64,000 nt of DNA from a virus (IMGVR_UViG_3300048913_000256:1-64000), one strand, 5' to 3'; shown: positions 1 through 44,404, counted from the first letter of the stretch. Program-made: numbers and translations. The notes: generated by a model from the letters alone, not told the origin.

Positions 1-211
1 AAGCAGTAGGGATGTGTTTATCAACCCAAGCGCGAGATTCCGCATCAAGGCGGTCGAGGATCGCGAGGATCTCAGCGAGGAGGACGCGCTGTTTTTTCGT
101 GGACAGCGCATATCGCGAACCCGCTTCGAGCTTGGCGACGATAAGATCGGCGGCGTGGCGGTACTGGGCGACAAGTGACTCGATTTCCTTGTCGAAGTCA
201 AGTTCGCCCAT
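1..211 (-). CDS. Partial CDS (first ~70 codons, continues off the left edge) just downstream of portal. Possibly a head-morphogenesis or minor capsid protein.
   Basis: ATG at 209-211 overlaps the portal stop (TAATG). Reads MGELDFDKEIESLVAQYRHAADLIVAKLEAG... Function is guessed from position only. Confidence 0.45.
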   Translation of the reverse strand, partial: MGELDFDKEIESLVAQYRHAADLIVAKLEAGSRYALSTKKQRVLLAEILAILDRLDAESRAWVDKHIPTA

Positions 212-1752
212 TACGCTACCTCGCCATTGAATGCGCTACTGGCGGCCTGACTCGTGACAATCGCGGCGTCTCGCTGCTCGTCGTCTTGGATGCGGTCGAG
301 GATTTCCTGTGCTTGCATGTCGTCGAGGTCGTCGAGATGTTTGATCGCGGTCATCTGGTCCAGCGTCGGCTTGTTGCCGGTACGGATCTGCGCGATCTCC
401 GCCTCTTCGCGTTCGTTGCGCGGAATACCGTCTTTCCAGCGGATCTTCGGATACGGGACCTCGTACGGAACGAACCCTTCGACGCGCTCGTTTTGCGAGT
501 TGTCGAGAAGCATCGCCGTGTAGAGCGCGTCGCGTAGCGCAACATCGACGCTCTGACGAATCCGCTTGACTTTCGAGAGAATTGGGAAGAATCGTGCCTT
601 GATTGCGCCGCCATCGGTGTGCGACGTGCCCGTACCGCCCTCGTTGCCTTGCGCGATCGTCGTACCGAACACCCATTGTGGCGTTTCTGATTCTAAGAAC
701 ACGTAGGAGACGAGTTTGTCGAGCTGCCTAAAGGCTGCGTCCAGTTGGCCGTCCCACGTCATGTAGCCCGGCGTGACGTCAGCCTTATCAACCTCGATGT
801 ACTCGCCGCTCAATCGGACAGTCGTGTTGCCATCGTCCTGCAGCGGTGGTCCGTAGGTTGTGGGGTCGCTGTGTTTCAGCAAAATGTAGTCGATCTGAAC
901 CAAGCGGTCGTTAATCGCCGCCAGCAGGGATTCCATCTTCTCAATGCCGCTCACACCCCAAAACCGCTCGTCGTCAGTCTTGTACGGGATGTGGTGCATG
1001 AGTAGGCGGCTCGTTCCGGTCGGCGTGATTACGGACTCGCCGATCTGTCTTCCAATCGTGTACGTGTTGATGTGAACGCCGTCGCACTCGTCGTAAGTGC
1101 CACCGTCAAGCATGAACTTCTCGCGGATCACGTAGCCGGGGATGTGGCGCTCGACGTCGAGGTAAACGTACTCCTCGCGACCGTGAGCGTCCGTCACAGC
1201 GACTTCGTATGCAATATTGACCGCCTTCAGTCGTTTACGAGAGCCGTCCGCGAACTCAGGGAACACGTTTTCGGCGATGACCGATGTAATCATGGGTTCT
1301 AGTGGCGCATCGTTCGGCGGCTCCAGCCCGTCGTAGTCGGCGAGCGCAGACATGTCGTGGCGCGTTCCGAACCACGTCTTCAGCCACGCGTCGCCACGAT
1401 ATCCTGCGCCGATGACCAATTCATGCCCACGCCTGTTCAGGTCATTCTCTTCCACAATCGACGAGAGTCGCTTTTGAACGACCGAGTCGTCAGGCATGCC
1501 GCTCTCGTACACCGGCGGTTCCCCAAACATCAAATCGGCAGGCTTCGTAATCAAAACGTCGGCGAGGTTGACCGCAATGTAGAGTTGGCGAAGGTACTTC
1601 GCATGCGGCGTGTTTTTCAGGATGTCGGCAGCGCGCTCATAAATCTCCGCCTGACGCCCGTCGTAAATGATGCGACCGCGACGGTACTTGGCGATGCGCT
1701 CGATATCTTCGGGTGGCGGGTATGGCGCGCCGGTGCGAAACAGTTTCGTAAT
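211..1752 (-). CDS. Phage portal protein (start extended to ATT)
   Basis: The ORF-track 447-aa product (TTG at 1554) continues in frame 66 codons upstream with no ATG/GTG/TTG. AAAGGAGG + 8 nt + ATT sits at 1750-1752. The added N-terminus ITKLFRTGAPYPPPEDIERIAKYRRGRIIYDGRQAEIY looks portal-like, and the gene directly follows terL. Confidence 0.75.
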   Translation of the reverse strand: MTKLFRTGAPYPPPEDIERIAKYRRGRIIYDGRQAEIYERAADILKNTPHAKYLRQLYIAVNLADVLITKPADLMFGEPPVYESGMPDDSVVQKRLSSIVEENDLNRRGHELVIGAGYRGDAWLKTWFGTRHDMSALADYDGLEPPNDAPLEPMITSVIAENVFPEFADGSRKRLKAVNIAYEVAVTDAHGREEYVYLDVERHIPGYVIREKFMLDGGTYDECDGVHINTYTIGRQIGESVITPTGTSRLLMHHIPYKTDDERFWGVSGIEKMESLLAAINDRLVQIDYILLKHSDPTTYGPPLQDDGNTTVRLSGEYIEVDKADVTPGYMTWDGQLDAAFRQLDKLVSYVFLESETPQWVFGTTIAQGNEGGTGTSHTDGGAIKARFFPILSKVKRIRQSVDVALRDALYTAMLLDNSQNERVEGFVPYEVPYPKIRWKDGIPRNEREEAEIAQIRTGNKPTLDQMTAIKHLDDLDDMQAQEILDRIQDDEQRDAAIVTSQAASSAFNGEVA

Positions 1753-1779
1753 GGTGTCGTCCTCCTTTCGTTTACGGCG

Positions 1780-3513
1780 TTACAGGTACGAAGGCTTCTC
1801 GCGTACCCTGCGCGGCGGCTTCGATGCCACATCGACCGCGTATGCGAGTGCGTCCGGTCCGTCGTCGTGGTTATGCGACGGGTACTGCACGAACATTTCG
1901 AGGAGCAGGCGGTGATCGCGGCGGAACTGAAGCGTTCCGTTCTGCGTCAACGGCTCCAACGACTCGATGCGCTCCTCTTTCTTGCGCTTGGTGGCGATCT
2001 CGACGAGACGTGTGCGGTAGAGTCGCTCCTGCCGCAGCGCATCCTTGAGCTGGCGAGCCAAGTCGATTTGCCCGCCGACTGTCTCGACGACGAACGACCG
2101 GTGATCAAACTCCGCGATCTTGTCGACCGCGACCTTGAGCGCTTCGTGGGCGGGACACTTCGCCATCCACACGTCCCAAACATAAAGTACGCCCGTTTTT
2201 CGATGACGGGCGATGGTTACGATTGCGTTGTAGTCGGACCGGTTCGATTTCCCGAACGCGATGTCCCACGCGCCGTAGAAGTCGCACTCGTGTGTGTCGA
2301 GTTCGGCCGGGGCGAAGTAGAAGAACTGTTCGGGGCGGAAGACGGCGGACTCTTCGTCGATCGGGTTGTTCTGATACTCGGTCGAGAACGCCTTGGAACC
2401 GTTGTCCCATTTCCAGACCATCAGCGCCCATAGCGGCTGAACGTCGGGCCACAAGACGACAGCGCCTCGATCCATTTCGTCCTTGTTGTCCGCGTAGAAC
2501 GAGAGTGCTTCATCGGCGCGGTTTGGGTTCTCGCGATCTTGATATATCGTCTGACATCGCTGCCAGAGATCCATGCGGTCGGGTTCATCGATGAGCGCTC
2601 GGAAGAGACGTGACTTGAAGTCGGAGCGTTGCGTCATGATGTGCCGTAGAAGCGAGTCCTGATGAACCATCGTTCCCATAACGACAAAGGCTGTTTTCTT
2701 GCCGGAAGGATCGCCGAGCGGCATGACGACCTGCGTAAACCAGTCACGAAGTTCTTTTCGGAGCTCTGGCGTGTTTGTGTTCTTCTTGCCTTCGAGGTCA
2801 TCGCAAATAACGAGATCCGGCCGAACGCCGTTCCAGTTTCGACCACGCAATGCTTGGTTCGAGGAAGATGCCTCGACCTTCGTAAGCAACCGCTGTCCGC
2901 CGTCACCTGTCGGCTCCCATGCGATGAACTCCGACGAGTTGTCCTTCGGATTCATCTGCTGCTTGATGTGCAAGAGCGGTCCGAAATCGCGCCGGAACTT
3001 CTCGTTCGAGCGCAACTGCGTCGCGAGCCAATCGAGGTTCCCGACCGCAACCGTTGGCGTCTCTGAAATCACGATAATGTACTTGCGCTTCCGGTACGCA
3101 ATCTCGCGCGCCGGCGACGATTTCGACAGGAACGATGACTTTGCGTGTGATCGAGGCGCGGCCCATGCGATCTTGGCGTTGCGATTGACCATCGAGACGT
3201 CGTCCATGAGTCCGCAGAGCTGGCGATGGAAATCCGGTGCCATCGCGATCTCGACCGGAATCCAGTTACCGGAGTTGTCGGGGTTGTAGATCTCGCCGAA
3301 GTACTCGTATGAGAAGTACAGTAGATCGATCTCTGCGCGATGAATGCGCTCCAGTCGCGTCAACTCGTCGTCATACCCGATGCACTCTCGCAACTCATCG
3401 TCAGTCAGCGTCGGCTTCGCTGCGAGCGTGTCACGGAGTTCGCGATACAAGTCGATGAGTTGTTGTCGTTCTTCTCGCGGCGCGAACCGCTTTTCTGTTT
3501 CGATCCAAGCGAT
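1780..3513 (-). CDS. terL: Terminase large subunit
   Basis: Motifs: Walker-A-like AAPRSHAKSS, VICDDLEG, nuclease-domain AWDIAFGKSNRSDYNAIV and HNHDDGPDALAYA. The ORF-track N-terminus (up to 3678) is a tRNA read as protein. The best start is AGAGGAGG + 9 nt + ATC at 3511-3513; the start is uncertain. Confidence 0.85.
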   Translation of the reverse strand: MAWIETEKRFAPREERQQLIDLYRELRDTLAAKPTLTDDELRECIGYDDELTRLERIHRAEIDLLYFSYEYFGEIYNPDNSGNWIPVEIAMAPDFHRQLCGLMDDVSMVNRNAKIAWAAPRSHAKSSFLSKSSPAREIAYRKRKYIIVISETPTVAVGNLDWLATQLRSNEKFRRDFGPLLHIKQQMNPKDNSSEFIAWEPTGDGGQRLLTKVEASSSNQALRGRNWNGVRPDLVICDDLEGKKNTNTPELRKELRDWFTQVVMPLGDPSGKKTAFVVMGTMVHQDSLLRHIMTQRSDFKSRLFRALIDEPDRMDLWQRCQTIYQDRENPNRADEALSFYADNKDEMDRGAVVLWPDVQPLWALMVWKWDNGSKAFSTEYQNNPIDEESAVFRPEQFFYFAPAELDTHECDFYGAWDIAFGKSNRSDYNAIVTIARHRKTGVLYVWDVWMAKCPAHEALKVAVDKIAEFDHRSFVVETVGGQIDLARQLKDALRQERLYRTRLVEIATKRKKEERIESLEPLTQNGTLQFRRDHRLLLEMFVQYPSHNHDDGPDALAYAVDVASKPPRRVREKPSYL

Positions 3514-3522
3514 GGGCCGACG

Positions 3523-3575
3523 CCTCCTCTCGTGTGAAATAGAAAAAGCGCCCTGACCGCGATGGTCGAGCGCTT
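3523..3575 (-). terminator. Hairpin + U-tract + SD module between tRNA-Gly and terL
   Basis: Sense strand reads AAGCGCTCGACCATCGCGGTCAGGGCGCTTTTTCTATTTC...GAGGAGG. A close paralog of this module sits at 57551-57593. Confidence 0.55.
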
Positions 3576-3586
3576 GATTTGCGTTG

Positions 3587-3660
3587 TGGAGTCGGTAGTC
3601 GGAATCGAACCGACGTGTCGCGCTTGGAAGGCGCGTGCTCAACCACTGAGCGATACCGAC
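3587..3660 (-). tRNA. tRNA-Gly (anticodon UCC) with encoded CCA
   Basis: Cloverleaf read by eye: acceptor GTCGGTA/TACCGAC, D stem GCTC/GAGC, anticodon stem CGCGC/GCGCG with loop CTTCCAA, T arm GTCGG-TTCGATT-CCGAC, discriminator T, then CCA. Confidence 0.9.
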
Positions 3661-3672
3661 ACGATTACTTCT

Positions 3673-3731
3673 CCTCACTTATATAGGGGCTGAAAACGCC
3701 ATTTCGGGTAGTCGAAGACGAAATTTCATCG
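3673..3731 (-). promoter_or_regulatory. Late-operon element, copy 1 (candidate activator site plus promoter)
   Basis: The core GCTGAAAACGSCATTTCGGGTAGTC matches 7298-7322 at 24/25 nt. The sense strand carries the inverted repeat ATTTCG-N13-CGAAAT, then TATAAG about 18 nt before the tRNA 5' end. Confidence 0.55.
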
Positions 3732-3801
3732 AAAAAGTTGACGAAATCCTATCAGTGTGACAAAATGAGAGTAACGACACATTGATACGGAGGTTTCCGC
3801 C

Positions 3802-4410
3802 ATGAAAGAAGCCCAACCACTACGCGACGAACGCCATATCGACGCCTTGATCGAGTCCTTGACCGGTCGCGACCTACTCCTGTTCCTCGTCGGCATCCGT
3901 TCTGCCTACCGCGTGAGCGACATTGTTCCGCTTAAACTCGGCACCCTGCGCCATGACTCGCACTATTACGTCATCGAGACGAAGACCGGCAAGACGCGCA
4001 TGATTAAAATCGACGACGACGTCCGTGCGCTTGCTCGCGAGATGCCCGGCGACGACGGCGAATATGCGTTCAAGTCGCGTGAGGGCGAGAACCAACCGAT
4101 CACCCGCCAACAAGTCGACCGCATCCTGAAGGCGGCGCAACAACGGGCGAACGCGCTGTTGAAGTCACGCAAGCAGCCGATTATCGAGCGGCCGATCTCG
4201 GCGCATACGATGCGAAAGACATTCGGATATCACTACTACACGGAGACGCTCGATGTGGCAACGCTGATCCGCGTCTACAACCACTCGTCCTCTGCGATGA
4301 CTCTCGCGTATATCGGGATCACGCAAGACACGATCGACGACGCGGTTGACGTCGTGAGCAAGTTGGGGAAGCGCGCGTTGGCGAAGAGAGGCGTACGGAA
4401 GGCGAAGTGA
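3802..4410 (+). CDS. Tyrosine recombinase, catalytic domain only (202 aa)
   Basis: Catalytic residues: R in GIRSAYRVSD, K in ETKTGKTR, HxxR in AHTMRKTF, H in NHSSS, Y in TLAYIG. GGAGG SD lies 8 nt before the ATG. Confidence 0.85.
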   Translation: MKEAQPLRDERHIDALIESLTGRDLLLFLVGIRSAYRVSDIVPLKLGTLRHDSHYYVIETKTGKTRMIKIDDDVRALAREMPGDDGEYAFKSREGENQPITRQQVDRILKAAQQRANALLKSRKQPIIERPISAHTMRKTFGYHYYTETLDVATLIRVYNHSSSAMTLAYIGITQDTIDDAVDVVSKLGKRALAKRGVRKAK

Positions 4411-4432
4411 ATACGGGGAATTACGTGGGCGG

Positions 4433-4463
4433 CCGCTCTCTTGCGAAGGAGGGCGGTTTATTT
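4433..4463 (+). terminator. Intrinsic terminator after the recombinase gene
   Basis: CCGCTCTC-ttgcgaag-GAGGGCGG followed by TTTATTT. Confidence 0.6.
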
Positions 4464-4934
4464 GCGTGGGCGGGCGTGGTAGAATCGAGGGGCCAAAGTA
4501 AAATTTGATGCGCGGATTTTTCGGGGGCTAGATGCGGGGTCCAGCGAGGGGTACCTTGGGGGTCGAACGTGGCGATTGTATACGCATGCAGTCAACATGC
4601 ATATTGAATGTGACAAAAACAGTTTGTGTAACACTCGAAGTATCGCACAAACCCAGTAATACCAAGGCTTTCAGACGCGTTAGGTGTGCGAGTAATTGTG
4701 GTGATCTTTATGCATACGGCAGAATGCGGGCTGACGGGCTCTCAGCGCGGGAAATATGTGCATAAAATCCTGCATACGACGTCCTTCCTAAAACAACTGT
4801 TTAACGATAGAAATACGAACGCTTGTTCCTTTTTTGAAAGTTTTCGAGGCGGCACCCGCCTGAGCGCCGCACCCGATGTAAATCGCCTCCTCTGCGAAAT
4901 CACGCGATCATATCGTACCAACCGCTACTACTAA

Positions 4935-5330
4935 CTACGCCGTCTCAGCGTCGCTTGCAGATTGGTTACGTTTCATCTCCGCAAGTCTCGCCTTCAGCGC
5001 ATCCACATCGCCCGAGCCATCGGTAACGGTCGTGTTCATCTCGACTTTCTCCGTCAACATGCCGTTTGCTTGCAGGATGAGCTTCGCCGCAGCCGCATTC
5101 CCGCCGATACCGTGATCGATTAACGCTTCCATCAACTCGGGCAAGCGTGCCTGCGTATTCCGCGTAATCTCACGCTTCAACTCGGTTTGGAACGTCTCGT
5201 TGCGCTTCCAATCGTAGATAGTGCGCTCGCCCACGCCTACCTTCTTCGCGATCTCGGCGATCGTAGGCCGCTGTTCCTTCGGCAATGCGAGCAACGCAAT
5301 CGCCTCGTACTGTTCCGTTCTCAACGCCAT
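4935..5330 (-). CDS. terS: Terminase small subunit (HTH type)
   Basis: ATG at 5330 follows AAAGGAGGTGA; the track GTG at 5342 lies inside that SD. N-terminal HTH is PTIAEIAKKVGVGERTIYDWKR. Size and position upstream of terL fit. Confidence 0.7.
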   Translation of the reverse strand: MALRTEQYEAIALLALPKEQRPTIAEIAKKVGVGERTIYDWKRNETFQTELKREITRNTQARLPELMEALIDHGIGGNAAAAKLILQANGMLTEKVEMNTTVTDGSGDVDALKARLAEMKRNQSASDAETA

Positions 5331-5498
5331 TCTTCGTATCACCTCCTTTCACACGATAGTTTCAATCATCGCCTCTATACGCCCTCACACGCCACGATAT
5401 CGCCCACTCGGATACCATCGCACCGGATGCGTATATAAACGCCACCACACGCCTCCTAGACGCCACATAGCGACATATACGAACGAGTGTGCGTGTGC

Positions 5499-5555
5499 TT
5501 AGCGCAGTCCGCGGTCGATATATCGGATGATCTCGAAAACAACCGGTTCACACAT
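5499..5555 (-). CDS. 18-codon mini-ORF (MCEPVVFEIIRYIDRGLR) with a strong SD
   Basis: GAGGAGGTGA + 5 nt + ATG. Too short for the ORF track. It could be a leader peptide or chance. Confidence 0.25.
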   Translation of the reverse strand: MCEPVVFEIIRYIDRGLR

Positions 5556-5575
5556 TCTTGTCACCTCCTCGCGTA

Positions 5576-5836
5576 TTAGCGCCCTATCACGACGTCGACC
5601 ACTGTCTTCCCGACCCTGAACGAATCCCATCCGATGGTTTCGAGATCACGAATGAGTTCGGGCCTATTGCGCCTGATCTCGCTGTAGGACGAGAAAACGC
5701 CCGCATCAACGAGTGCTCGCGGTAAGAATCGCTCATCAGTGCGCAATGTCACCGATGCTTGGTCGAGTCCTAACGACACCAGCGAACATATCGGCTCACC
5801 TACTACGATGACAACGTGCCGGTTGTATTGCGACAT
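5576..5836 (-). CDS. Hypothetical protein (86 aa)
   Basis: ATG at 5836 is preceded by GCGAGGTGA. No recognisable motif. Confidence 0.5.
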   Translation of the reverse strand: MSQYNRHVVIVVGEPICSLVSLGLDQASVTLRTDERFLPRALVDAGVFSSYSEIRRNRPELIRDLETIGWDSFRVGKTVVDVVIGR

Positions 5837-6024
5837 ACTACGTCTCACCTCGCTTCCCTTGCGTAGTCTCATCGTATCTCTCGCGTGTAGGTGGCGCTTT
5901 GTCCACGACTTCGCTCCGAATATCGAATAGAAAAACGGTATCTGCGATCAATCGTCTCTATCGCCCATACCGTCCCTTATCCGCATATGCAATTCATAGA
6001 GATATCCCTTTGCTCGCTGAGTCT

Positions 6025-6060
6025 TTTATTCTTTATTCTTTTATTCTTAGGTCTTTATTC
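6025..6060. repeat. AT-rich tract with four TTTATTC repeats
   Basis: TTTATTC occurs at 6025, 6032, 6040 and 6054, directly abutting the iterons. Confidence 0.8.
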
Positions 6061-6063
6061 TTT

Positions 6064-6191
6064 GTTACGGTCAAAGTAGGGCGTAACGGTTACGGTGTGA
6101 AAGGGCGTAACAGAAACGCTCGTTACGGTGTAGAAGGGCGTAACATCTGCTCGTGATCACGCTAATGCGTTACGGTTAAATAGGGCGTAAC
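6064..6191. repeat. Four 23-24 bp iterons with palindromic ends (GTTACGGTKW..WAGGGCGTAAC)
   Basis: Units at 6064-6087, 6089-6111, 6122-6144 and 6169-6191. Each is GTTACG-N11/12-CGTAAC. Confidence 0.85.
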
Positions 6192-6195
6192 ATAC

Positions 6196-6735
6196 CTACA
6201 ACTTGCCGTTCATTTTGCGCCACAGGTACGACCCTTCTACGATATCCTGCACTCCAGCCGCCTCCTCCGCCCCATCTCCGCCAGCCTTCGCCCGATGTCG
6301 TTTCATCCGCTCCCGGCTCGCCTTATTTTCGCGCTGCGCCTTTTCGATCGACGCCGCTTTGAACTCGCCAATCTGCGACCACTTCGCGTGAAACTCAGCG
6401 GCGGGTAACGGCTCTCTAACGTGAAAAATGCACTTCTTCAAGCCATCCTCAATCAGCGTTATCTTATCTATCTCAACGAGTCCGACCGCCACCAGCCGCT
6501 TGATCCGTGACTCAGCGGTTCCTTTCGCCATCCCCGCATGTGCCGCCAATTCTACGTAAGCCAAGCGCACGGTTCCGTGTCGGTCGCTGCTGGCGTTGTT
6601 GTAGCGCAGTCGACGCATGATCGCATAGAAGCCGAGATCCGCGAAATCGAAATTCGGCAGGTGTAGGTATAAGTCGATCGCCTCGTTGTACAGTTTCGTA
6701 AATCCACGTTTTTTCCTCGATTTCTCTTCGTCCAT
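6196..6735 (-). CDS. Winged-helix DNA-binding protein (replisome-organizer/Rep-like N-terminus)
   Basis: The segment GTVRLAYVELAAHAGMAKGTAESRIKRLVAVGLVEIDK resembles the wHTH of 37909-38769. ATG at 6735 follows GAGGGG; an alternative TTG lies at 6792. Confidence 0.5.
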   Translation of the reverse strand: MDEEKSRKKRGFTKLYNEAIDLYLHLPNFDFADLGFYAIMRRLRYNNASSDRHGTVRLAYVELAAHAGMAKGTAESRIKRLVAVGLVEIDKITLIEDGLKKCIFHVREPLPAAEFHAKWSQIGEFKAASIEKAQRENKASRERMKRHRAKAGGDGAEEAAGVQDIVEGSYLWRKMNGKL

Positions 6736-6916
6736 GAGCGTTACCCCTCGATCAGATTCCCGTTCCTCGTTGATAAAAGTGCAGGCGGTCAAAGTCGTGA
6801 GGGTAACGGGTGTATACGACTTGTTCGCTTGGCCGAGCTAGACCGCCTGTGTTGAGAACGCCAGAAGACGCCTCAGCGATGAAGGCGACAGGTTCGTCAC
6901 CTCGCACGCTCAAACG

Positions 6917-7222
6917 TCATCCTCGAAAGTGTACAGCCTCTTCGATTAATTCCTCGGCTGAGATACCGCCCTCTTCGAATCTACGGATATGATCAAAAAG
7001 CCAGTCTCTCGAGAACTTTTCACCGTCGATCAATACCCCCTCGCAGGGTACTCCGAGGACATCAAAGACGGCATCCCACATCTCACACTCGTCTTTCTCG
7101 AACACTGCGAATAGTCCACCATCAATCCTCAAGAGAGCGGCTAAACGGTCCTGAAAGTCCCGTGCCTGCCGCATAGTCTCTGCAAAATGGATCGCTAGTT
7201 GTTTTTCGCCCGTAGTTGCCAT
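6917..7222 (-). CDS. Hypothetical protein (101 aa)
   Basis: Clean ORF and the first gene after late-element copy 2. Confidence 0.55.
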   Translation of the reverse strand: MATTGEKQLAIHFAETMRQARDFQDRLAALLRIDGGLFAVFEKDECEMWDAVFDVLGVPCEGVLIDGEKFSRDWLFDHIRRFEEGGISAEELIEEAVHFRG

Positions 7223-7281
7223 AGTAAAATCGCTCCCTTTTATTCGAACAGAAAGCGCCGCTCACTCGGAACGACGCCTGC

Positions 7282-7341
7282 CCTCATTTACTTACTAGCT
7301 GAAAACGGCATTTCGGGTAGTCTGTCACGAAATTTTCTTCG
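7282..7341 (-). promoter_or_regulatory. Late-operon element, copy 2
   Basis: Aligns without gaps to 3673-3731 apart from one indel. It overlaps the stop of the regulator gene and precedes 6917-7222. Confidence 0.55.
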
Positions 7342-8257
7342 TCTTCCCTGCGCCATAGTTCCAGCCGACCTCCAATTGCCACTGGTCGCCAATCCGCCGC
7401 ACATCGCCATCACTCGGCAGCCGGACCTTGAAATCCGATGAAAATTCGAATCCGAACGCATTCCGACGCGACCGCTCGCCATAGAACGTATCCTCATCGC
7501 ACCCCTTCGTTTCGCCCCGCCCCGCACGCTTCTGGCTGCGCTTGGACTTCGCGACTCTCGTTTCAGGCTTCGCGGTGTGCACTGTGTTCTTTTGCTTTCG
7601 CTCCATCACGCTCTCTGGCGGGATCGCGTATCGGAATCGCCCCGCCTCGTCCATCACGAATTGTGACGAGTAGAACGGGTACTCCGCCAACGTCGCCTGC
7701 CGGTAGTCGAGGGTCGCGTTGTAGAACGTGTATCGGTACGCGACCGGTGCGAGATCCACGACATTATCGGCTGGTTGCGGAAGTGAAGCGTTGATTGCCG
7801 CCAACATCGAGACGTCCGGTTCGGACAGAGGATTTATTGCGCCGGTTGCGACAGGGCGCAGAGGTGCGAATGGAACCGCGACGTCGGACGCTTCTGCCTG
7901 CGAGGTCGGGTGCCGGAACACCGCGCGAAGATTGCTCGCGATCCGCATCGCCGCCGAGCGCAGGGACTTCGATAGATTGGACGGATCCACACAAAGGAGG
8001 AGCGCCGCCTCTTGTACTTTGAGTCCGACAGAGTAGCGCAGGAAGATGGCGCAGCGTTGATGAGCGGTCAGCACGCCGGAGGTACCCGCCACGCGCATGA
8101 CGTCGACTAGGAGGGCGACCGAGTCGTCGGAGGATTCGGACTCATAGCGCACCGTCTCGATGCTGGCGAGGAGATTCGAGATCCCTTCGGTCGTGTATGC
8201 GTAGTCGGTATCATTCTGGAGCGGTTTCTTGCCTAGATCGCGTTTAACGTGTCCCAT
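7325..8257 (-). CDS. Putative late transcriptional activator (RinA/ArpU-like, sigma region-4-type HTH) with a ~190-aa C-terminal extension
   Basis: LTAHQRCAIFLRYSVGLKVQEAALLLCVDPSNLSKSLRSAAMRIASNL looks like a region-4 HTH. The gene sits immediately upstream of the packaging genes. Confidence 0.5.
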   Translation of the reverse strand: MGHVKRDLGKKPLQNDTDYAYTTEGISNLLASIETVRYESESSDDSVALLVDVMRVAGTSGVLTAHQRCAIFLRYSVGLKVQEAALLLCVDPSNLSKSLRSAAMRIASNLRAVFRHPTSQAEASDVAVPFAPLRPVATGAINPLSEPDVSMLAAINASLPQPADNVVDLAPVAYRYTFYNATLDYRQATLAEYPFYSSQFVMDEAGRFRYAIPPESVMERKQKNTVHTAKPETRVAKSKRSQKRAGRGETKGCDEDTFYGERSRRNAFGFEFSSDFKVRLPSDGDVRRIGDQWQLEVGWNYGAGKTKKIS

Positions 8258-8260
8258 CGG

Positions 8261-8455
8261 TTAATTCGCCTCCTTTTCGTGGACTTTCGATCCGCTGATG
8301 ATGGTGCGTACGCAGTCGTTGCAAACGCGCTCATCACGGCCGACACTCGTATGGTCGCGGAGTTTGGTTCGCGTCGCATAGCGGACTGGCACGTCCTCCG
8401 TGCCGCACACGTCGCAGCTTCCGAAATTCTCGTGGTAGTCAGGTCGCTTAAATAT
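8261..8455 (-). CDS. Small zinc-ribbon protein (CxxC...CxxC); start uncertain (ATA?)
   Basis: ...FGSCDVCGTEDVPVRY...ERVCNDCVRT... AGGAGG + 9 nt + ATA at 8453-8455. The next canonical start (GTG) would delete the first Cys. Confidence 0.45.
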   Translation of the reverse strand: MFKRPDYHENFGSCDVCGTEDVPVRYATRTKLRDHTSVGRDERVCNDCVRTIISGSKVHEKEAN

Positions 8456-8720
8456 TGAGATTCGCCTCCTTTCGTTGATGTGCGGCACGGAGCGTCTGCC
8501 ATGTCGCCTCGTCGAAATATTGCGCCAACCCGCGCCGCTCAACGCCCCAGTAGTCGAGGTTGGCGACGTTGTAGGTCGCGACCTTACCGTCGGGACGCGC
8601 AAGCCAGCGGTCAAGTGCGAGCGGAGCGTCGGTGATCTCACCTTCTGCGATAGACGGCTGTGTCATCGGGTTGTACGGCAGGCCGTTGGATCCGCGTGAG
8701 TTCGTGAGTTTAAGCGCCAT
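8448..8720 (-). CDS. Hypothetical protein (90 aa)
   Basis: GAAGGGGGG SD. First gene after promoter-like motif A. Confidence 0.6.
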   Translation of the reverse strand: MALKLTNSRGSNGLPYNPMTQPSIAEGEITDAPLALDRWLARPDGKVATYNVANLDYWGVERRGLAQYFDEATWQTLRAAHQRKEANLNI

Positions 8721-8797
8721 CGGTTGCGCCCCCTTCGCGGTGGATTACGTAGAGTGTCGTCAATGAATCGTCCCCTTTCGAGTGGTGTTGCGTAAGG

Positions 8798-8827
8798 TAT
8801 CTCGAAGGAGAAGGCGAGGTTGTCCGC
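8798..8827 (-). promoter_or_regulatory. Phage promoter-like motif, copy A (sense GCGGACAACC-N-CGAGATA)
   Basis: Sense strand: gcggacaacctcgccttctccttcgagata, 77 nt upstream of the 8720 start. Confidence 0.6.
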
Positions 8828-8877
8828 TCACTCACGTTCGCAAGAACTTCCCTTCGGTCACGAAGTGCGAGTGAGCG

Positions 8878-8911
8878 CAAAAGAAAAACGCCTCGCGCGG
8901 TGGCGGGCGTT
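8878..8911 (-). terminator. Intrinsic terminator
   Basis: Sense strand: AACGCC-loop-GGCGTT followed by TTTCTTTTG. Confidence 0.55.
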
Positions 8912-8958
8912 ATCCTTGGAACAGTGAGGACAAGAAAGGGAAGTTGCCATCTACAACA

Positions 8959-9171
8959 TCATAAAGACAAAATCAAGACTATTTTTTGACTGAGTGAGGT
9001 ATATAATGAAAAATAGAAAGTGCCGGTGGCAGCCGACACTTCCGCGACAAGTAATTGTCTTTTCTTTCGCTTGAAGCCTACGGGCTTCTTTTTCTCGTTT
9101 TTCAGTAACTTAAAGATTTCTAAAACCTTCGAAATAACTGACAGCAACAGTAGTAAGTAGTCAATATCCAC
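8959..9171 (-). CDS. Small hydrophobic, Lys-rich protein in an AT-rich islet (70 aa)
   Basis: GAGGGGGA + 7 nt + GTG. Sequence MDIDYLLLLLSVISKVLEIFKLLKNEKKK... Visibly low GC. Confidence 0.4.
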   Translation of the reverse strand: MDIDYLLLLLSVISKVLEIFKLLKNEKKKPVGFKRKKRQLLVAEVSAATGTFYFSLYTSLSQKIVLILSL

Positions 9172-9400
9172 TGGCGTATCCCCCTCTCGTATTTATGATA
9201 CAAGATTACGTCACAGGTTAAGTGGGGTCAAGACGCTAGAAGTCTATGAAATATGTACCAGCAGAGCGATAGAACCGAGCTAGTTCTGCGAGAATCGCCT
9301 AGAATCGTCATGGCGGGGGAGAAACGGTTAAGGTATCGTTTGACGCGTGTGCGCCCCGATTCGACCGTAGCTGACGCCCGCAAGATAGGCAATATTACCT

Positions 9401-9441
9401 ATAGAAAAGACGCCTGAGCCATCGCGCCCAAGCGTCTTTTT
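9401..9441 (-). terminator. Intrinsic terminator (A-run and T-run flanked, possibly bidirectional)
   Basis: AAAAGACGC-loop-GCGTCTTTTT. Confidence 0.6.
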
Positions 9442-9443
9442 CG

Positions 9444-9710
9444 TTATGCAACCCGCTGCTGTACGTCCGCTTGCGGTGTCTTCACCGGAAACTCGATGAT
9501 CTGCGCCCCGTCCGCCCGCTCTGCGCAGCGTTCATCGCGACCCAGCAGAATGTAATCGGTGAGCAGCGTCAGTAGCGCCGGCTCCGGTCGGTCCGCGAAC
9601 TCGTCGGTCAGCGCTTGGACTTCGCGGATGCGCTCCTGTGCGGTCAGTTCGGTGCGCGAGATCAGCGTGTTGACGTCGTCTCTGAAGCGTTGTTTGTCGT
9701 TATGCGGCAA
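9444..9710 (-). CDS. Hypothetical protein (88 aa)
   Basis: Clean ORF that overlaps the upstream gene's stop. Confidence 0.6.
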   Translation of the reverse strand: MPHNDKQRFRDDVNTLISRTELTAQERIREVQALTDEFADRPEPALLTLLTDYILLGRDERCAERADGAQIIEFPVKTPQADVQQRVA

Positions 9711-9888
9711 CGGTATCGCCTCCTTTCTCGTCTGACATCGTTGCTAGTTCGAGCCATGCCGCGACCTCCTCGAAGCGCTCGATGATGCGCAGGAGCGTTC
9801 GGGAGCCGTTGCCGGCGTGGTAGGCGATGAGGGCGGCGATGGTGTTGTCCAGTTCAACCACGGCGTCCGCGATCGTCGGTTTCGTCAT
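9700..9888 (-). CDS. Hypothetical protein (62 aa)
   Basis: Its ATG overlaps the methyltransferase stop (ATGA). The track ORF 9700-10149 extends spuriously into the MTase gene. Confidence 0.55.
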   Translation of the reverse strand: MTKPTIADAVVELDNTIAALIAYHAGNGSRTLLRIIERFEEVAAWLELATMSDEKGGDTVAA

Positions 9889-11312
9889 GCTGCGCTCAAC
9901 TCGTTTCTGTTCGATGATTGCGCCGCCAAGACTTGCGCAGATAGCGCGGCGGCGAGGTGGTACGCGACTCGCGAGGCTACTCCGTTCCCAACTACGCGGT
10001 ACATCGCGGATAGAGACATGCCTTCGGGAAATACGTAGGTGTCGGGAACCGATTGGATGCGCAGGCACTCGCGAACCGTGAATCGTCGCGGGGCACTCGT
10101 CGGGTGAATCGGCTGACCGCTGTTGTGGTGCGCTGGAATCGTGTTGCAAGGCGCGTCCATCGACTGTATGCGGTTCGCTTGGTCGTAGGAGTATTCGGAC
10201 TTCGGCGTCCAGTAATCTCCAATCACGGGATTGGCGATTGATGCGCGGACCTTGTCCATCGTTACGCTGCCGTCCGCCGGATGAATCGACGCATCGCGAG
10301 CATTCGTGAGTACCGTATATGCCGCGTCATCCCACGGTACGACGCGGTTTCGCGACAGGTACTGCGAGGAGTAGCGCCCATCTTGCGGGTTACGCTCGTT
10401 CTCAGTCGGTTCCGGTAGATCCCCGATAGCATCGCGCAGCACCGGTCGATACCCGCTCATCTCGAACTCAGAGCTCGGCCACTCGAATTCGAATCCGAGA
10501 TCCTCGCGAATCCCGACGATGAAGACGCGTTCACGTTTCTGCGCTACACCGTAATCCCATGCGTTGAGTACGCGCCAAGTCACGCGGTAGCCAAGTGCCT
10601 CGAATTCCGCGACCAGCGCGTCGAGCGTGTGGCGATGCTTCCTAGTCGTCAGTCCCTTCACGTTTTCGAATAGGAACGCCTTCGGGCGCTTGGCTGCGAT
10701 AATTTCGAGGTAGCGCCATACGAGTTTGCCGCGCTCTCCCGCTTCGCCCGCGCCTTTTCCTGCCGTCGAATAGTCTTGGCACGGCGGTCCGCCAATCACG
10801 AAATCGGCGTCAGGGATCGAGTTGATCGGAATTTGCGTGATATCGCCTTGGACGATGGAGCCAGCGCCGAAGTTGTGCTCGTGAGCGCGACATGCGTTCT
10901 TATCGAAGTCGTTCGCCCAAACGGTCGTGATGCCCGCGTGCTCGACGCCGAGGCGCATCAGACCGCCACCTGCGAAGAGTTCGATAGCGGTCAGACCGTT
11001 CGCAGGGAGGCGCGGGAGTGCGGGGAGTAGCGGTTGGTGAAGCGGGACTACGTTTGACATCGAATCACCTCCGGGGTGTAGTTGACACGTCGCTTTCGCC
11101 ATCGGCGCTGCAAGAACAGTTAAAGCGGGTTCATCCCATCGCATCCGGCGAAGAAACGTTGTTTGACCGCCACCGCTCCCGTATGCCCCGCCCATAAACG
11201 CACGTTGCTCGTCCTCCGACAGACTTCGCCAGTTCCCGCCTGGCGGTATTTTCTGAGCATACGGCGCTTCGTCGTTTCGGACACCATAGCCGACGTGGTT
11301 CGCCGGGATCAC
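9885..11312 (-). CDS. DNA (cytosine-5)-methyltransferase
   Basis: Motifs: I ELFAGGG, IV GGPPCQDYS, VI ENV, VIII QKRERVFIVG, IX RRFTVRECLRIQSVPD, X GNGV. An internal start at ATG 11060 with GGAGGTGA SD is also possible. Confidence 0.9.
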   Translation of the reverse strand: MIPANHVGYGVRNDEAPYAQKIPPGGNWRSLSEDEQRAFMGGAYGSGGGQTTFLRRMRWDEPALTVLAAPMAKATCQLHPGGDSMSNVVPLHQPLLPALPRLPANGLTAIELFAGGGLMRLGVEHAGITTVWANDFDKNACRAHEHNFGAGSIVQGDITQIPINSIPDADFVIGGPPCQDYSTAGKGAGEAGERGKLVWRYLEIIAAKRPKAFLFENVKGLTTRKHRHTLDALVAEFEALGYRVTWRVLNAWDYGVAQKRERVFIVGIREDLGFEFEWPSSEFEMSGYRPVLRDAIGDLPEPTENERNPQDGRYSSQYLSRNRVVPWDDAAYTVLTNARDASIHPADGSVTMDKVRASIANPVIGDYWTPKSEYSYDQANRIQSMDAPCNTIPAHHNSGQPIHPTSAPRRFTVRECLRIQSVPDTYVFPEGMSLSAMYRVVGNGVASRVAYHLAAALSAQVLAAQSSNRNELSAA

Positions 11313-12634
11313 GCCGCCACCCCCTTCGTGCTCGCGTCAGTCACGGTCAGCGTCGAGCGGAGGCGTTCGACCAACTCTCCGACTACCAGCGCATCGAGAT
11401 AGAGTCCATCGCGATCAATCGGTATTTTGAGGAGATCGATAACCTCGCGAACAACCGCATCCCGCGCATCCCGGCGCTCAATCTCGCACTTCACGTATTG
11501 AATCGCATCAATCAGCTCGTCCAGCGCGCCGTTCGCGCAGTCCCATGTCTTGTTCTCGTCGAGCGTCATGCCGTACTCGGCGACACCTTTCGCAGTTTGA
11601 GCGTCGAGTCGGGCGAGGATGTCGTCGGCTACGCGGTCACGGAAGGTTTGCGGCGGTTTGGGTTCTTGCGCCGGTTGGCGGAGATTCCACGGGATGATGT
11701 CGCCGGGTTTAACGTAATGCCCCAGTGCATAATATTTCTCACGCTTTCGTCGGATGAGGATGTCGCGGTCATCGTCGCGAAGATTTTCGACCAAAAACAC
11801 CTCGTCGCGGTCAAGGATTTCTCTGTCAAGCGCGCACGTTCTCGCCAGAACTGCAACCTCATCGCCAACCTGCGGAGTCCACGGACGGAGTTCGCTTACT
11901 TGCGCGGTCAGACGACGGTTTTCCGCGAGCCGTAGCGTGACCTCGCCGTCCGACGTGATTTCCTCGACGACACCAATCGACCGCCCACGCCAGTCGAGTT
12001 CCACGTAGTCGCCGACATTCGGTTCGTAGGCGGGTACTGTCGTGGTAGACGGTTTTTGCGGGAACCAGCGCTCCCATTCGCCCCCTTCCGCGTTTCCGAT
12101 GTCGGCGCGGAGTTCGCGCGGGGTGACGAGGCGTACAGCACTGTCACCGAATACCTCTCGATTCCATCCGTAGTTTATCGGAAGATCACTCGATAGGAAT
12201 CGCTTGTCGAAACACCAGAAGTCTTTCGTTCTGTGCTCGCCGAGGACGACGTTCTTTCCTCGGAAAGCATTGACAGCGAAGTCAGCGGTCAACTCCACGA
12301 CATCCCCCTCGTAGAACTCGCCTTCTTTGCGCGCCGCCAGCGATTGGGCAACGGGATGGTTCGCGGGGAAGATGGCGGTTAGCGCGTCTGCGGTGAATCT
12401 TCCGAGTCCATCGGTGTTGCGAACGATTGCGGCGAAGACGCCCTCCTCCGTTGCTTCAACGACGCCGCGCCCGAAGCAATTCGAAACAATCGCGCCGACC
12501 TCGATTCCTTGCGCCTGCTTCGCGGCTTCCTTCGCCTGTTCAGCGGCGAGTTGGCGTTCGAGTCCCGCGACTCGGTCGCCCCATTCTTTCGTGCGCGATT
12601 TTGAGTATTCCAACCGTTCCTGAATCGTTTTCAT
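11309..12634 (-). CDS. Hypothetical protein (441 aa) with repeated small beta-barrel-like modules
   Basis: Repeated VGDxVEL / GDVVEL motifs. The C-terminal helical part is vaguely MazG/NTP-PPase-like (weak call). Confidence 0.55.
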   Translation of the reverse strand: MKTIQERLEYSKSRTKEWGDRVAGLERQLAAEQAKEAAKQAQGIEVGAIVSNCFGRGVVEATEEGVFAAIVRNTDGLGRFTADALTAIFPANHPVAQSLAARKEGEFYEGDVVELTADFAVNAFRGKNVVLGEHRTKDFWCFDKRFLSSDLPINYGWNREVFGDSAVRLVTPRELRADIGNAEGGEWERWFPQKPSTTTVPAYEPNVGDYVELDWRGRSIGVVEEITSDGEVTLRLAENRRLTAQVSELRPWTPQVGDEVAVLARTCALDREILDRDEVFLVENLRDDDRDILIRRKREKYYALGHYVKPGDIIPWNLRQPAQEPKPPQTFRDRVADDILARLDAQTAKGVAEYGMTLDENKTWDCANGALDELIDAIQYVKCEIERRDARDAVVREVIDLLKIPIDRDGLYLDALVVGELVERLRSTLTVTDASTKGVAA

Positions 12635-12637
12635 CGT

Positions 12638-13138
12638 CTAATCGTCCCCATTCTCGTAAATTTTCGCTCTCAACCGCTGCCGTCCGAATCTAATCGCCTC
12701 GTCGCGATTCGAGTGTCCGACGTAGATATCGAGATGCCCCGCCGTGATCGCGCCTCCCCGATCCTCCACGATGAACTTGCGAATGGAGCCGTCGGGCATC
12801 GTGAGTTCGACGCGGCTGCCGAATGGAATCGCGCTCCAAGCGGCTACGGTCGTCCATGCGCGAGCTGGCGCTCCGCTTGCGGTGATGTCGTCGCCCCGTT
12901 GATCGCCGTCGATGCCGGTATAGGCGCTGACGTAGGCGGTGCCGTCGAAGATGACGACGGGATATCGCGTGGCGGGAGGTGCGACCTTCTCGACTGAACG
13001 CGAGACAGGCGGTGGAATCGGCGGCCCATGCGCGAAACCTTCGATTAGGTAGCGCGGAATATCGGGTGCGTGCGCTGGAATCGGAACAGCGGCGGATAAG
13101 AGCGTCAGGAGGACGGTGCATAGGCGGAGTAGTCGAAT
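12638..13138 (-). CDS. Secreted 3D-domain (MltA/RlpA-like) protein; absent from the ORF track
   Basis: AAGGAGG + 8 nt + ATT at 13136-13138. Signal peptide IRLLRLCTVLLTLLSAAVPIPAHA. 3D-type motifs GDDITASG...IPFGSRVEL...FIVEDRGGAITAGHLDIYV. Confidence 0.7.
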   Translation of the reverse strand: MRLLRLCTVLLTLLSAAVPIPAHAPDIPRYLIEGFAHGPPIPPPVSRSVEKVAPPATRYPVVIFDGTAYVSAYTGIDGDQRGDDITASGAPARAWTTVAAWSAIPFGSRVELTMPDGSIRKFIVEDRGGAITAGHLDIYVGHSNRDEAIRFGRQRLRAKIYENGDD

Positions 13139-13199: not shown

Positions 13200-13229
13200 T
13201 ATCTCGCAGGAGGAGGCGCGGTTGTCCGT
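13200..13229 (-). promoter_or_regulatory. Phage promoter-like motif, copy B
   Basis: Sense strand: acggacaaccgcgcctcctcctgcgagata, directly after the terminator at 13234-13269. Confidence 0.6.
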
Positions 13230-13233
13230 GAAC

Positions 13234-13269
13234 AAAAAAAAACGCCCGACCGCGAGGGTCTAGGCGTTT
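13234..13269 (-). terminator. Intrinsic terminator
   Basis: Sense strand: AACGCC-tagaccctcgcggtcg-GGCGTT followed by T9. Confidence 0.75.
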
Positions 13270-13466
13270 TTCGGTTTCGACTGACTCAATATTTCCGTTA
13301 CGATAGAAGAGCGAGATCCTCGACACCACGCGCCGAATCCCGTTTTATCGAGGCTGAATTTCGTTTTTGTGTCACGGGTCACCCGCCACTCTCCGATGAT
13401 AATTTGCTCGCCTTCAATGAGCTTATCGAGAGCTTCGTTCATTTCTTTTCGTTCCACCACCATCAC
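13260..13466 (-). CDS. Hypothetical protein (68 aa)
   Basis: Clean ORF with ordinary amino-acid composition. Confidence 0.55.
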   Translation of the reverse strand: MMVVERKEMNEALDKLIEGEQIIIGEWRVTRDTKTKFSLDKTGFGAWCRGSRSSIVTEILSQSKPKNA

Positions 13467-17837: not shown

Positions 17838-17867
17838 AATCTCGCGTGGAGTTGCGAGGTTGTCCGC
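17838..17867 (-). promoter_or_regulatory. Phage promoter-like motif, copy C
   Basis: Sense strand: gcggacaacctcgcaactccacgcgagatt, abutting the RNR stop codon. Confidence 0.55.
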
Positions 17868-23237: not shown

Positions 23238-23518
23238 GCGGTGACAGCCCCCTTCGCTTGGTACAGGTCATCGAGTTCATCCTCTGCGTCAGCGAGCACC
23301 TCTTCAAGACGTTCAACTTCGGCGGTCTTTGCGCGGAGTTCGCGACCCATTGCGCGCTGCGCAAACTTTTCGGTGATAGTCGAAGCCACCGCCAGAGCGA
23401 GCATGATACCGCCGCCAACCGGATGCGCTTCGTAGATCAGCGAGAAGGCGAAGAAGTAGAACAACGCCTCCCACACCGCCTCGTATACCGCAAGCGCGAT
23501 CCTTCCGAATGTCTTCAC
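23234..23518 (-). CDS. Membrane protein (94 aa) with a C-terminal coiled coil
   Basis: Two hydrophobic segments followed by ELRAKTAEVERLEEVLADAEDELDDL. Confidence 0.55.
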   Translation of the reverse strand: MKTFGRIALAVYEAVWEALFYFFAFSLIYEAHPVGGGIMLALAVASTITEKFAQRAMGRELRAKTAEVERLEEVLADAEDELDDLYQAKGAVTA

Positions 23519-25418: not shown

Positions 25419-25448
25419 TATCTCGCAGGCTCTACGCGGCTTGTCCGC
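25419..25448 (-). promoter_or_regulatory. Phage promoter-like motif, copy F
   Basis: Sense strand: gcggacaagccgcgtagagcctgcgagata. The extended downstream match to copy B is ...gagataNatagcgaaac. Confidence 0.6.
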
Positions 25449-30907: not shown

Positions 30908-30937
30908 TATCTCGCGGAATAGGCGAAGGTTGTCCGC
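30908..30937 (-). promoter_or_regulatory. Phage promoter-like motif, copy D
   Basis: Sense strand: gcggacaaccttcgcctattccgcgagata. Confidence 0.55.
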
Positions 30938-42071: not shown

Positions 42072-42281
42072 TCGGGATCATCTCCTGATTTTCGGAATGG
42101 TAACTAATTCCCATTTCTCGAAAGGAGGCGACTCTTGCGAAAGTTAGACCGATTATTTGAAAATAGAACGTTAGTTCGCTTTAATGCAATCGGCAACTAT
42201 CGTAAGATGTAAGTAGTGTCACGCCATTGACATTCAGTGTCAGTCCGTTGTACATTTGACTTAACACAACTAGAATAAAAT

Positions 42282-42477: not shown

Positions 42478-42739
42478 CGTTTTACTAGCAACGCGCCAAC
42501 GCACTATGTAAAACGATATTTCGTTTAACTATTACTATTGATAGACTAATAATACAGTATCGGAAATATTCGAGCAATAGCGAAACATGTCGAAACAAGT
42601 TCACAATACTCCTTATTACTAGAATACTTGGAAACTTCTACGAGTGTCAATCGTATTATACTAGATTCATACAATGTAAGAATAAAGACGCACGTGATAT
42701 AGTTTTACTATTAGACGTTTTTGGAAAGAGGTTGATAAC

Positions 42740-43051: not shown

Positions 43052-43052
43052 T

Positions 43053-44393: not shown

Positions 44394-44404
44394 GATTCTC
44401 CCTT

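Follow-up and report, generated by a model that had tools for sequence, protein, structure and literature searches.

Putative AUU, AUC and AUA start codons behind strong Shine–Dalgarno sequences in packaging, lysis and other genes of a Bacillales siphophage group

Escherichia coli infC begins with an AUU codon and is autoregulated in a manner that depends on initiation factor 3 (IF3), which discriminates against the AUU start codons of both infC and pcnB. The AUU start of pcnB is attributed to a paper that is cited in PMC13009471. In Staphylococcus aureus, initiation-site profiling identified AUU or AUA starts in cvfC1 (AUU), ccpN (AUA), citZ (AUA) and infC (AUA), all of them behind extended Shine–Dalgarno (SD) sequences; reporters gave approximately 10% (up to 30%) of the output of AUG, and the AUA start of ccpN is conserved in Bacillus subtilis (PMC13009471). 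Streptomyces sigR has a GTC start that is repressed by IF3 (PMC5472188). In phage SPP1, genes 2 and 16 begin with an AUG that has no ribosome-binding site (RBS) and overlaps the upstream stop codon, a case of dosing by translational coupling or RBS-less starts, and all 80 open reading frames (ORFs) use AUG, GUG or UUG (PMC6316719). Here we analyse a viral sequence of 64,000 nucleotides (nt), IMGVR_UViG_3300048913_000256:1-64000 (the window), in which the genes for the portal protein, the large terminase (terL), a secreted 3D-domain protein, a zinc-ribbon-like protein and a BhlA-family holin appear to start at AUU, AUC or AUA codons (collectively AUH) behind strong SD sequences.

The arrangement resembles that of S. 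aureus cvfC1, ccpN, citZ and infC in that, within the Bacillota, a strong extended SD at the proper spacing selects an AUU or AUA codon. The non-canonical codon and its SD are conserved among relatives of the S. aureus set, and they are likewise recurrent in the phage group. The S. aureus set comprises four chromosomal regulatory or metabolic genes among thousands, mapped experimentally, whereas the phage set comprises 5 of approximately 80 genes, is known from comparative evidence, centres on genes for packaging and lysis and on that of a secreted wall enzyme, and includes AUC. As in E. coli infC and pcnB, the AUU codon would limit translation and IF3 would discriminate against it, for the phage genes by analogy; unlike the infC feedback loop on IF3, nothing suggests feedback in the phage, the genes of which would passively report IF3 stringency. 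The sigR case, a single, experimentally verified gene from another phylum, shows that doubly mismatched codons can be regulated starts, and one homologue of the 3D gene (L052) reads GTC where the ATT of the window stands in the alignment. With SPP1 genes 2 and 16 the phage genes would share a presumed aim, fixed ratios of terminase- and portal-associated proteins from one late transcript, but the sites in the window combine a maximal RBS with a weak codon. The kind of mechanism is known; what appears to be new is how densely it occurs (5 of ~80 genes) and how far it is concentrated in genes for morphogenesis and lysis. In the literature searched, the coverage of which was incomplete, no phage was reported to use AUH starts for its terminase or portal genes, and a genomics paper on Paenibacillus larvae phages does not mention non-canonical starts.

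Gene models for the window were built with a codon log-odds score trained on long ORFs, and the duplex energy with the anti-SD sequence (ΔG, kcal/mol) was computed for each candidate start. Among approximately 80 models, an ATG, GTG or TTG candidate was found for all except the portal, terL, 3D and zinc-ribbon genes, for which a first-pass annotation of the window had claimed AUU, AUC or AUA starts behind strong SDs, and the holin gene. That list of four holds up but was incomplete, as it missed the holin start at 51909. The resulting tally of starts was ATG 48, TTG 16, GTG 11 and AUH 5. At every AUH site, a strong SD is followed, 8-9 nt after GGAGG, by an in-frame ATT, ATC or ATA, with no usable ATG, GTG or TTG; these layouts and the duplex energies, which range from -13.0 to -21.0 kcal/mol across the five sites, bear out the four sites originally proposed (Table 1). 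The spacing agrees with the modal 6-11 nt of this genome’s canonical starts, the SD duplexes of which were mostly about -8 kcal/mol or stronger, with a few much weaker. When both strands (128 kb) were scanned for ATH triplets that combine an SD duplex no weaker than -13 kcal/mol with 60 or more open codons downstream, only 10 sites emerged. Six of them belong to the five AUH genes, the zinc-ribbon gene contributing two candidate codons. Of the other four, three adjoin a canonical start that shares the same SD and one lies inside a gene. Given five SD-preceded genes without canonical starts, an in-frame ATH in a 5-10 nt window at all five would be expected by chance with P ~1-2e-6. We consider it highly probable that translation of the portal, terL and 3D genes is initiated at their AUH codons under direction of the SD; the AUH assignments for the zinc-ribbon and holin genes are likely, though held with somewhat less assurance.

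The closest cultured relatives of the window are the P. larvae Halcyone-cluster phages, Sporosarcina phage Lietuvens and Bacillus phage KLEB27-1, and a partial record, ‘Brevibacillus phage MRSA107’ (KY038360), is a further close relative. For the portal, it had been noted that no ATG, GTG or TTG occurs between the terL stop and a TTG 66 codons downstream of the ATT, and we found the same: the in-frame terL stop (TAA, 1782-1780) is 10 codons upstream of the ATT, and at the TTG, 1554, the SD duplex reaches only -2.9 kcal/mol. The ATT is aligned with, or adjacent to, Met1 (M-T/A/G-K-L-F) of about 90 homologue clusters. Matches to the model begin at residue 18 for PF05133 (SPP1_portal) and at residue 7 for phrog_533, and tblastn alignments to phage genomes begin at residue 1. 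Among 119 close portal clusters from Brevibacillus, Paenibacillus, Cohnella, Fictibacillus and metagenomes, the homologue starts on the codon aligned with the ATT in 71 and one residue later in 18, the usual N-terminus on the aligned codon being M/L/V-[TAGSP]-K-L-F. The portal of the window is stored publicly as a protein of 439 amino acids (aa) (P0064), which is 74 residues short.

The start was also compared in DNA: genomes, IMG/VR and metagenomes supplied 32 distinct 5′ ends of portal genes, in each of which the SD-supported start was scored. It was ATG in 10, TTG in 8, GTG in 4-5, ATC in 5, ATT in 2 and CTG in 2, so that 7 of the 32 (22%) begin with ATC or ATT. ATC was found in MRSA107, in a prophage of Lysinibacillus capsici PB300 (an isolate draft) and in three IMG/VR lineages, ATT in the window and in L023, and CTG in the phages Tripp and Halcyone. 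Four further ATC portals were confirmed in DNA, in Brevibacillus laterosporus CP033464, L059, L060 (GCA_001748185.1, an isolate) and L061. The B. laterosporus prophage portal reads AGAGGAGG-8nt-ATC GCT AAG TTA TTC, for a predicted N-terminus M-A-K-L-F, and is annotated from a TTG 19 codons downstream; in the other three, gene callers over-extended the protein upstream to an ATG or GTG without an SD. Overall, ATC or ATT occurs at the portal start in at least 10 independent sequences, and AUH portal starts account for roughly 8 of 120 close homologue clusters (~7%). The AAAGGAGG-N8-start arrangement is kept in relatives irrespective of the start codon, and an 8.4-kb IMG/VR contig that is identical across the portal carries the same ATT. 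In a neighbour-joining tree of portals, non-canonical starts fall in at least five scattered places among ATG, GTG and TTG sisters, and among portals with the xG(L/I)FRK type of N-terminus ATC or ATT persists across proteins that are only 73-91% identical. P0095 was rejected as an AUH case, since its start is in fact a canonical TTG that had been called wrongly, and P0137 (Brevibacillus agri) has a presumed ATC start.

The Tripp and Halcyone portals carry (G/T)AAGGAGGTGA-6nt-CTG (ΔG -15.8 and -15.4) 42 codons upstream of the annotated GTG, which is without an SD in both (ΔG -0.7 and -1.8). The CTG lies three codons past an in-frame stop, exactly at the onset of homology, and the N-terminus predicted from it is M-K-D-I-F. 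For the other Halcyone-cluster portals, tblastn alignments also start at residue 1, which suggests that they have the same N-terminal mis-annotation in GenBank/RefSeq.

The terL model matches phrog_38 (E 1e-89) and Terminase_6C. The earlier description of an ATC with an ideally placed SD was correct, whereas the downstream canonical alternative is nearer than had been stated: TTG 3450, the first in-frame canonical codon after the tRNA and terminator, is codon 21, but it has no SD (ΔG +0.1). An upstream start at GTG 3678 was rejected, because the ORF would cross the tRNA-Gly gene and the terminator. The ATC-GCT-TGG of the window aligns with ATG-GCG-TGG in Tripp and GTG-GCG-TGG in Lietuvens, and in 18 other distinct relatives the start, of the form M/V/L-A-W/Y, likewise coincides with the ATC. 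ATC is found in three lineages, which make up 3 of 21 distinct terL 5′ ends (the window, L015 and L038, the latter two encoding proteins 39-50% identical to that of the window), and ATG, with 12, is the commonest start. As the terL SD comes only ~12 nt after the U-run of the terminator-like hairpin, it seems that transcripts of terL have to start at the tRNA-Gly promoter or further upstream and read through the terminator. The hairpins before terL (3545-3575) and before the 3D gene (13236-13272), both on the minus strand, have the inner sequence GACC-NUCGC-GGUC in common; a consensus terminator scan missed both of these bulged hairpins, which were then confirmed by folding.

The 3D gene had been described as invisible to an ORF caller that accepts only ATG, GTG and TTG, and such a list indeed gives only a 53-aa stump at this locus. 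The first in-frame canonical codon, ATG 12799 (ΔG -0.8), is codon 113, inside the domain, which PF06725 places at residues 102-159. Starting from the ATT restores a signal peptide: by inspection, the N-terminus (M)RLLRLCTVLLTLLSAAVPIPAHA has the form of one ending in an A-x-A site. The homologues are 153-175 aa long and have a hydrophobic leader at the N-terminus, then a Pro-rich linker and lastly the 3D domain; the 166-aa ATT model agrees with them in length and architecture. The protein has no entry in a collection of 5.8 billion proteins, which indicates that gene callers did not see the gene, and a single-protein IMG/VR scan with it returned nothing useful. In the homologue of L055, GGAGGTGA-5nt-ATT (ΔG -13.8) restores the leader and signal peptide, the called start being an ATG without an SD; in that of L052, with its GTC, the called protein is a 97-aa stump; in that of L053, an ATG is only 2 nt after GGAGG and a CTG is at the usual spacing. 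An out-of-frame ORF from ATG 13121 (143 aa) was rejected as the gene at this locus because it is an Arg-rich shadow frame, with the domain in the ATT frame. Among the four genes originally listed, alignment of homologue N-termini therefore supports the AUH starts of three, portal, terL and 3D.

The zinc-ribbon gene had been put forward as the weaker case and stays so, with no homologues in IMG/VR or the 5.8-billion-protein set. The upstream canonical codons of its frame (GTG 8641 and others) are located within the gene before it (8448-8720) and have a ΔG no stronger than -2.6, and a downstream GTG at 8410 (ΔG -3.8) would drop the first Cys of CxxC. Coding potential in the ATA frame begins near 8440. 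An alternative ATC (8461), two codons upstream of the ATA, is only 3 nt from the SD. A +1 frameshift from gene 8448-8720 into this frame was set aside, as AAT-ATT-TAA offers no slippery or cognate re-pairing site.

In the holin gene, position 2 of the BhlA profile (PF10960) is aligned with residue 3 of the ATA model, so that the alignment with Met1 is partial and comes through the Pfam profile. A single-protein IMG/VR scan with the holin found nothing useful, and tblastn against phages gave one weak, unannotated match. An Amidase_2 endolysin (50908-51642) directly follows. The ATA with a TTG five codons on (51894-51909, minus strand) resembles dual-start holin/antiholin genes, namely SPP1 24.1/26 and lambda S; unlike in these, the upstream start of the window holin would be a weak codon.

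Table 1. Coordinates of the features discussed, in the window unless another record is named
Feature	Position	Strand	Remarks
Portal coding sequence, 513 aa	211..1752	-	modelled from ATT 1752-1750
Portal SD AAAGGAGG	1761..1768	-	8 nt upstream of ATT; duplex -15.8 kcal/mol
Large terminase coding sequence, 577 aa	1780..3513	-	modelled from ATC 3513-3511
terL SD AGAGGAGG	3523..3530	-	9 nt upstream of ATC; ΔG -15.9 kcal/mol
Terminator-like hairpin and U-run	3545..3575	-	between tRNA and terL SD; minimum free energy -18.2 kcal/mol, z -3.8
tRNA-Gly(TCC)	3587..3660	-	ARAGORN; just upstream of terL
CxxC...CxxC zinc-ribbon-like coding sequence, 64 aa	8261..8455	-	modelled from ATA 8455-8453
Zinc-ribbon SD AAAGGAGG	8472-8465	-	9 nt upstream of ATA; ΔG -16.2
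Secreted 3D-domain protein coding sequence, 166 aa	12638..13138	-	modelled from ATT 13138-13136
3D SD AAGGAGG	13153-13147	-	8 nt upstream of ATT; ΔG -13.0
Terminator hairpin, then promoter-like motif ACGGACAA-N15-GCGAGATA	13201..13272	-	before 3D gene; hairpin minimum free energy -20.9 kcal/mol
GCGGACAA-N15-CGAGAT copies	8799-8827, 13201-13229, 17839-17867, 25420-25448, 30909-30937	-	copy before 3D gene has one mismatch
BhlA-family holin coding sequence, 68 aa	51703..51909	-	modelled from ATA 51909-51907; fifth AUH case
Holin SD AGAGGAGGTGG	51925-51915	-	-21.0 kcal/mol, strongest of census; ATA 8 nt after GGAGG
XRE-type helix-turn-helix (HTH) gene	42740-43051	+	in low-GC island
HTH_3 and tetratricopeptide repeat (TPR) protein, 417 aa	43108-44361	+	in low-GC island
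57-aa ORF, convergent	44405-44578	-	signal-peptide-like N-terminus; duplicated QPPLPG(A/S)Y motif
Mis-annotated portal 5′ ends	L001 (NC_028930 Tripp) 3131-3257; L056 (NC_055029 Halcyone) record 3742-3868		read in DNA

In a rough census of the relatives, comprising approximately 400 gene models from 26 loci, non-canonical starts were flagged 19 times: 7 in portal, 3 in terL, 3 in 3D and 6 in all other genes. At 11739 of MRSA107 (KY038360), AACGGAGGTGA-6nt-ATA would open a 216-aa LysM-containing tail-region protein for which there is no canonical alternative. L053 has a candidate ATC start at 1301 for a 301-aa nuclease-like protein, the window homologue of which (23515-24552) uses TTG, and two CTG start candidates were flagged in L055, at 12104 and 1924.

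Several explanations other than SD-directed initiation at the AUH codons have to be weighed. Translation might begin at the next downstream canonical codon (TTG 1554, TTG 3450, ATG 12799 or GTG 8410), the upstream frame being a leader, and gene callers do choose such starts, as they did for the 439-aa portal of the window and for the Tripp and Halcyone portals from GTG. We regard this as very improbable, because none of these codons has an SD (see the ΔG values above), because the stretch that would be skipped is conserved protein aligned with homologue N-termini and with Pfam and PHROG profiles, and because the 3D protein would lose its signal peptide and half of its domain and the zinc ribbon its first Cys. 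Still less credible is the conversion of ATG into ATT, ATC or ATA by errors in base calling or assembly, or by mutations that inactivated the start recently. Each AUH start is one substitution from ATG and the window seems to have been assembled from an uncultured source, but third-base hits in the start codon would be needed at five independent sites, and the same state is found in MRSA107, the complete B. laterosporus genome, the L. capsici draft, GCA_001748185.1 and several IMG/VR and Logan contigs. Since relatives that include isolates and cultured phages have ATC, ATT, CTG or GTC at the aligned codon, the objections from error and from downstream starts are removed for portal, terL and 3D. 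Ribosome hand-over, by 70S re-initiation or coupling from the upstream gene, or terL–portal read-through, would replace de novo initiation, and has more in its favour while remaining improbable: terL and portal share a frame that one TAA interrupts, the portal ATT being 27 nt beyond that stop; gene 8448-8720 ends in a stop codon that overlaps the zinc-ribbon ATA; and the holin ATA is 21 nt past an upstream stop. It is possible that coupling boosts these three of the five starts. TerL and 3D, by contrast, follow terminator hairpins without an upstream translated ORF, so coupling cannot explain them. A conserved read-through fusion of terL and portal was rejected, as MRSA107 has two in-frame stops before the portal ATC and the frames differ in Tripp, and a full SD was found at every junction where a read-through or frameshift fusion might be sought. 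Full-strength SDs at canonical spacing everywhere are the signature of SD-directed initiation. The unusual density of AUH starts could also reflect relaxed start discrimination, through an unusual host IF3 or a phage factor, in which case AUH would be as efficient as AUG and nothing would be throttled. Against this, relatives with AUH starts belong to diverse Bacillales (Brevibacillus, Lysinibacillus and Paenibacillus phages), 75 of the ~80 window genes still use ATG, GTG or TTG, and no translation-factor gene was found among the ~24 window proteins, a minority of its genes, that were scanned against Pfam; we consider relaxed discrimination quite improbable.

The alternative that comes closest accepts the AUH codons as the true starts but gives them no purpose: strong SDs would make the start codon nearly irrelevant, so that ATG decays to ATH, TTG or CTG and back. 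Such tolerated drift is possible though not the reading we favour. It fits the toggling of close sisters in the portal tree among ATG, GTG, TTG, ATC and ATT, the uniform strength of the portal SD under any start codon, and the position of ATG as the commonest terL start. It sits less well with the frequency of AUH, which at 22% of portal 5′ ends is far above what is documented elsewhere (4 sites per S. aureus genome, PMC13009471; 0 of 80 SPP1 ORFs, PMC6316719), with the retention of ATC or ATT across diverged portals of the xG(L/I)FRK type although one base change restores ATG, and with the concentration of non-canonical flags in portal, terL and 3D (13 of 19 among the ~400 models). We lean towards selection on the basis of this gene-specific enrichment and of the persistence of ATC/ATT across diverged portals. 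Some observations count against initiation at the AUH codons or against a purpose for it. Support for AUH initiation in the phage and its relatives is comparative throughout. The mean SD duplex of the AUH sites is stronger than that of canonical starts (-16.4 versus -11.2 kcal/mol), a comparison that is partly circular because the candidates were chosen for strong SDs. The portal start flips often among ATG, GTG, TTG, ATC and ATT, which fits weak constraint equally well. The L053 ATG at 2 nt and the L052 GTC make the 3D family untidy, so that its exact initiating codon is tentative; the case for the zinc-ribbon start is made by SD position, coding potential and preservation of CxxC; and the in-frame TTG downstream of the holin ATA, 23 nt from the SD, could serve instead of the ATA or in addition to it.

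For SD-directed initiation at AUH, we propose the following mechanism. The extended SD, pairing with the 3′ end of 16S rRNA at -13 to -21 kcal/mol, would set the 30S subunit so that the AUH codon, 8-9 nt on, fills the P site. Initiator tRNA would pair with AUH through a third-position mismatch, and the protein would start with (formyl)methionine. Yield from AUH would be a fraction of that from AUG, because IF3 proofreading rejects such complexes; by analogy with the S. aureus reporters, the phage AUH codons may cut output several-fold. The codon would in this way act as a built-in attenuator, keeping output low for products of which little is needed, or a finely set dose, in comparison with what is co-transcribed, abundant structural proteins included: the terminase, which is catalytic, the portal, with 12 copies per capsid, the holin, the dose of which sets the time of lysis, and the 3D and zinc-ribbon proteins. 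We infer that initiation at AUH takes place in vivo, that it reduces yield and that the reduction has been selected; an adaptive role as a throttle seems to us somewhat the better supposition.

The phage genes of the window (G+C 56.5%) are nearly all on the minus strand. Pfam and PHROG profiles identified the large terminase and the SPP1-type portal, and other genes encode a tape measure protein, a large tail protein, the BhlA holin and Amidase_2 endolysin, DNA polymerase A, ribonucleotide reductase, a cytosine methylase, ParB and an actin-like protein. The ParB-N-domain protein and the actin-like (ALP/Alp7A/ParM-type) protein are encoded at 40139-41458 and 46685-47734 (minus strand), and the tyrosine recombinase is short (202 aa); this combination suggests a plasmid-like maintenance or segregation function rather than classical integration. 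A low-GC island at 42100-44800, where third-position GC content (GC3) is ~0.4 as against 0.7 elsewhere, contains three genes (Table 1), the arrangement of which resembles that of a cassette for peptide communication of the RRNPP or arbitrium type.

The terminator hairpin upstream of the 3D gene is followed by a promoter-like motif. The bipartite sequence GCGGACAA-N15-CGAGAT has four exact copies in the window compared with 0.05 expected. The copies inspected are intergenic and in the early/replication half, and the one at 30937 overlaps a TTG start assumed in the gene census. GCGGACAA...CGAGA also precedes the 3D homologues of L052 and L055, the contigs of which encode extracytoplasmic function (ECF)-type sigma factors. 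The motif probably represents a promoter class of a phage-encoded sigma factor.

Two intergenic regions near terL also drew attention. Approximately 525 bp at 4410-4935, between the small tyrosine recombinase gene (3802-4410, plus strand) and the next minus-strand gene, contain no convincing gene. An orphan AGAGGAGG-8nt-ATC at 4877-4897 (minus strand) leads into an ORF of just 29 codons and a GC hairpin. Lietuvens has a terminal repeat, integrase and terL at its left end, and synteny with that phage suggests that this region may be a genome-end or packaging region. At 6078-6192, non-coding DNA holds 3-4 copies of a ~24-nt unit, GTTACGGTG-N-AGGGCGTAACA, partly palindromic and spaced 24-47 nt apart, adjoined by an AT-rich 15-nt tandem repeat at 6020-6063; the units look like iterons or operators.

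One practical consequence is that callers restricted to ATG, GTG and TTG mishandle essential genes in this phage group, by truncating them, over-extending them or missing them altogether, and the prophage portals in several isolate genomes are truncated or artificially extended upstream. Cultured relatives exist, among them the P. larvae phages Halcyone and Tripp and inducible Brevibacillus prophages. A more speculative proposal, which we think rather unlikely, is that the AUH, CTG and GTC starts form a start-codon regulon of a large Bacillales siphophage group that is tied to IF3 stringency. In that event, terminase, portal, holin and wall enzyme would be dosed relative to the capsid proteins, and their synthesis would rise late or in certain host states as IF3 becomes limiting, the start codon being a heritable one-nucleotide knob for stoichiometry and lysis timing. 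If the weak codons are selected, they would provide a simple mechanism for low terminase and portal output and for the dose of holin from a shared late transcript, and a mode of control recently shown in Bacillota chromosomes would extend to phage morphogenesis.

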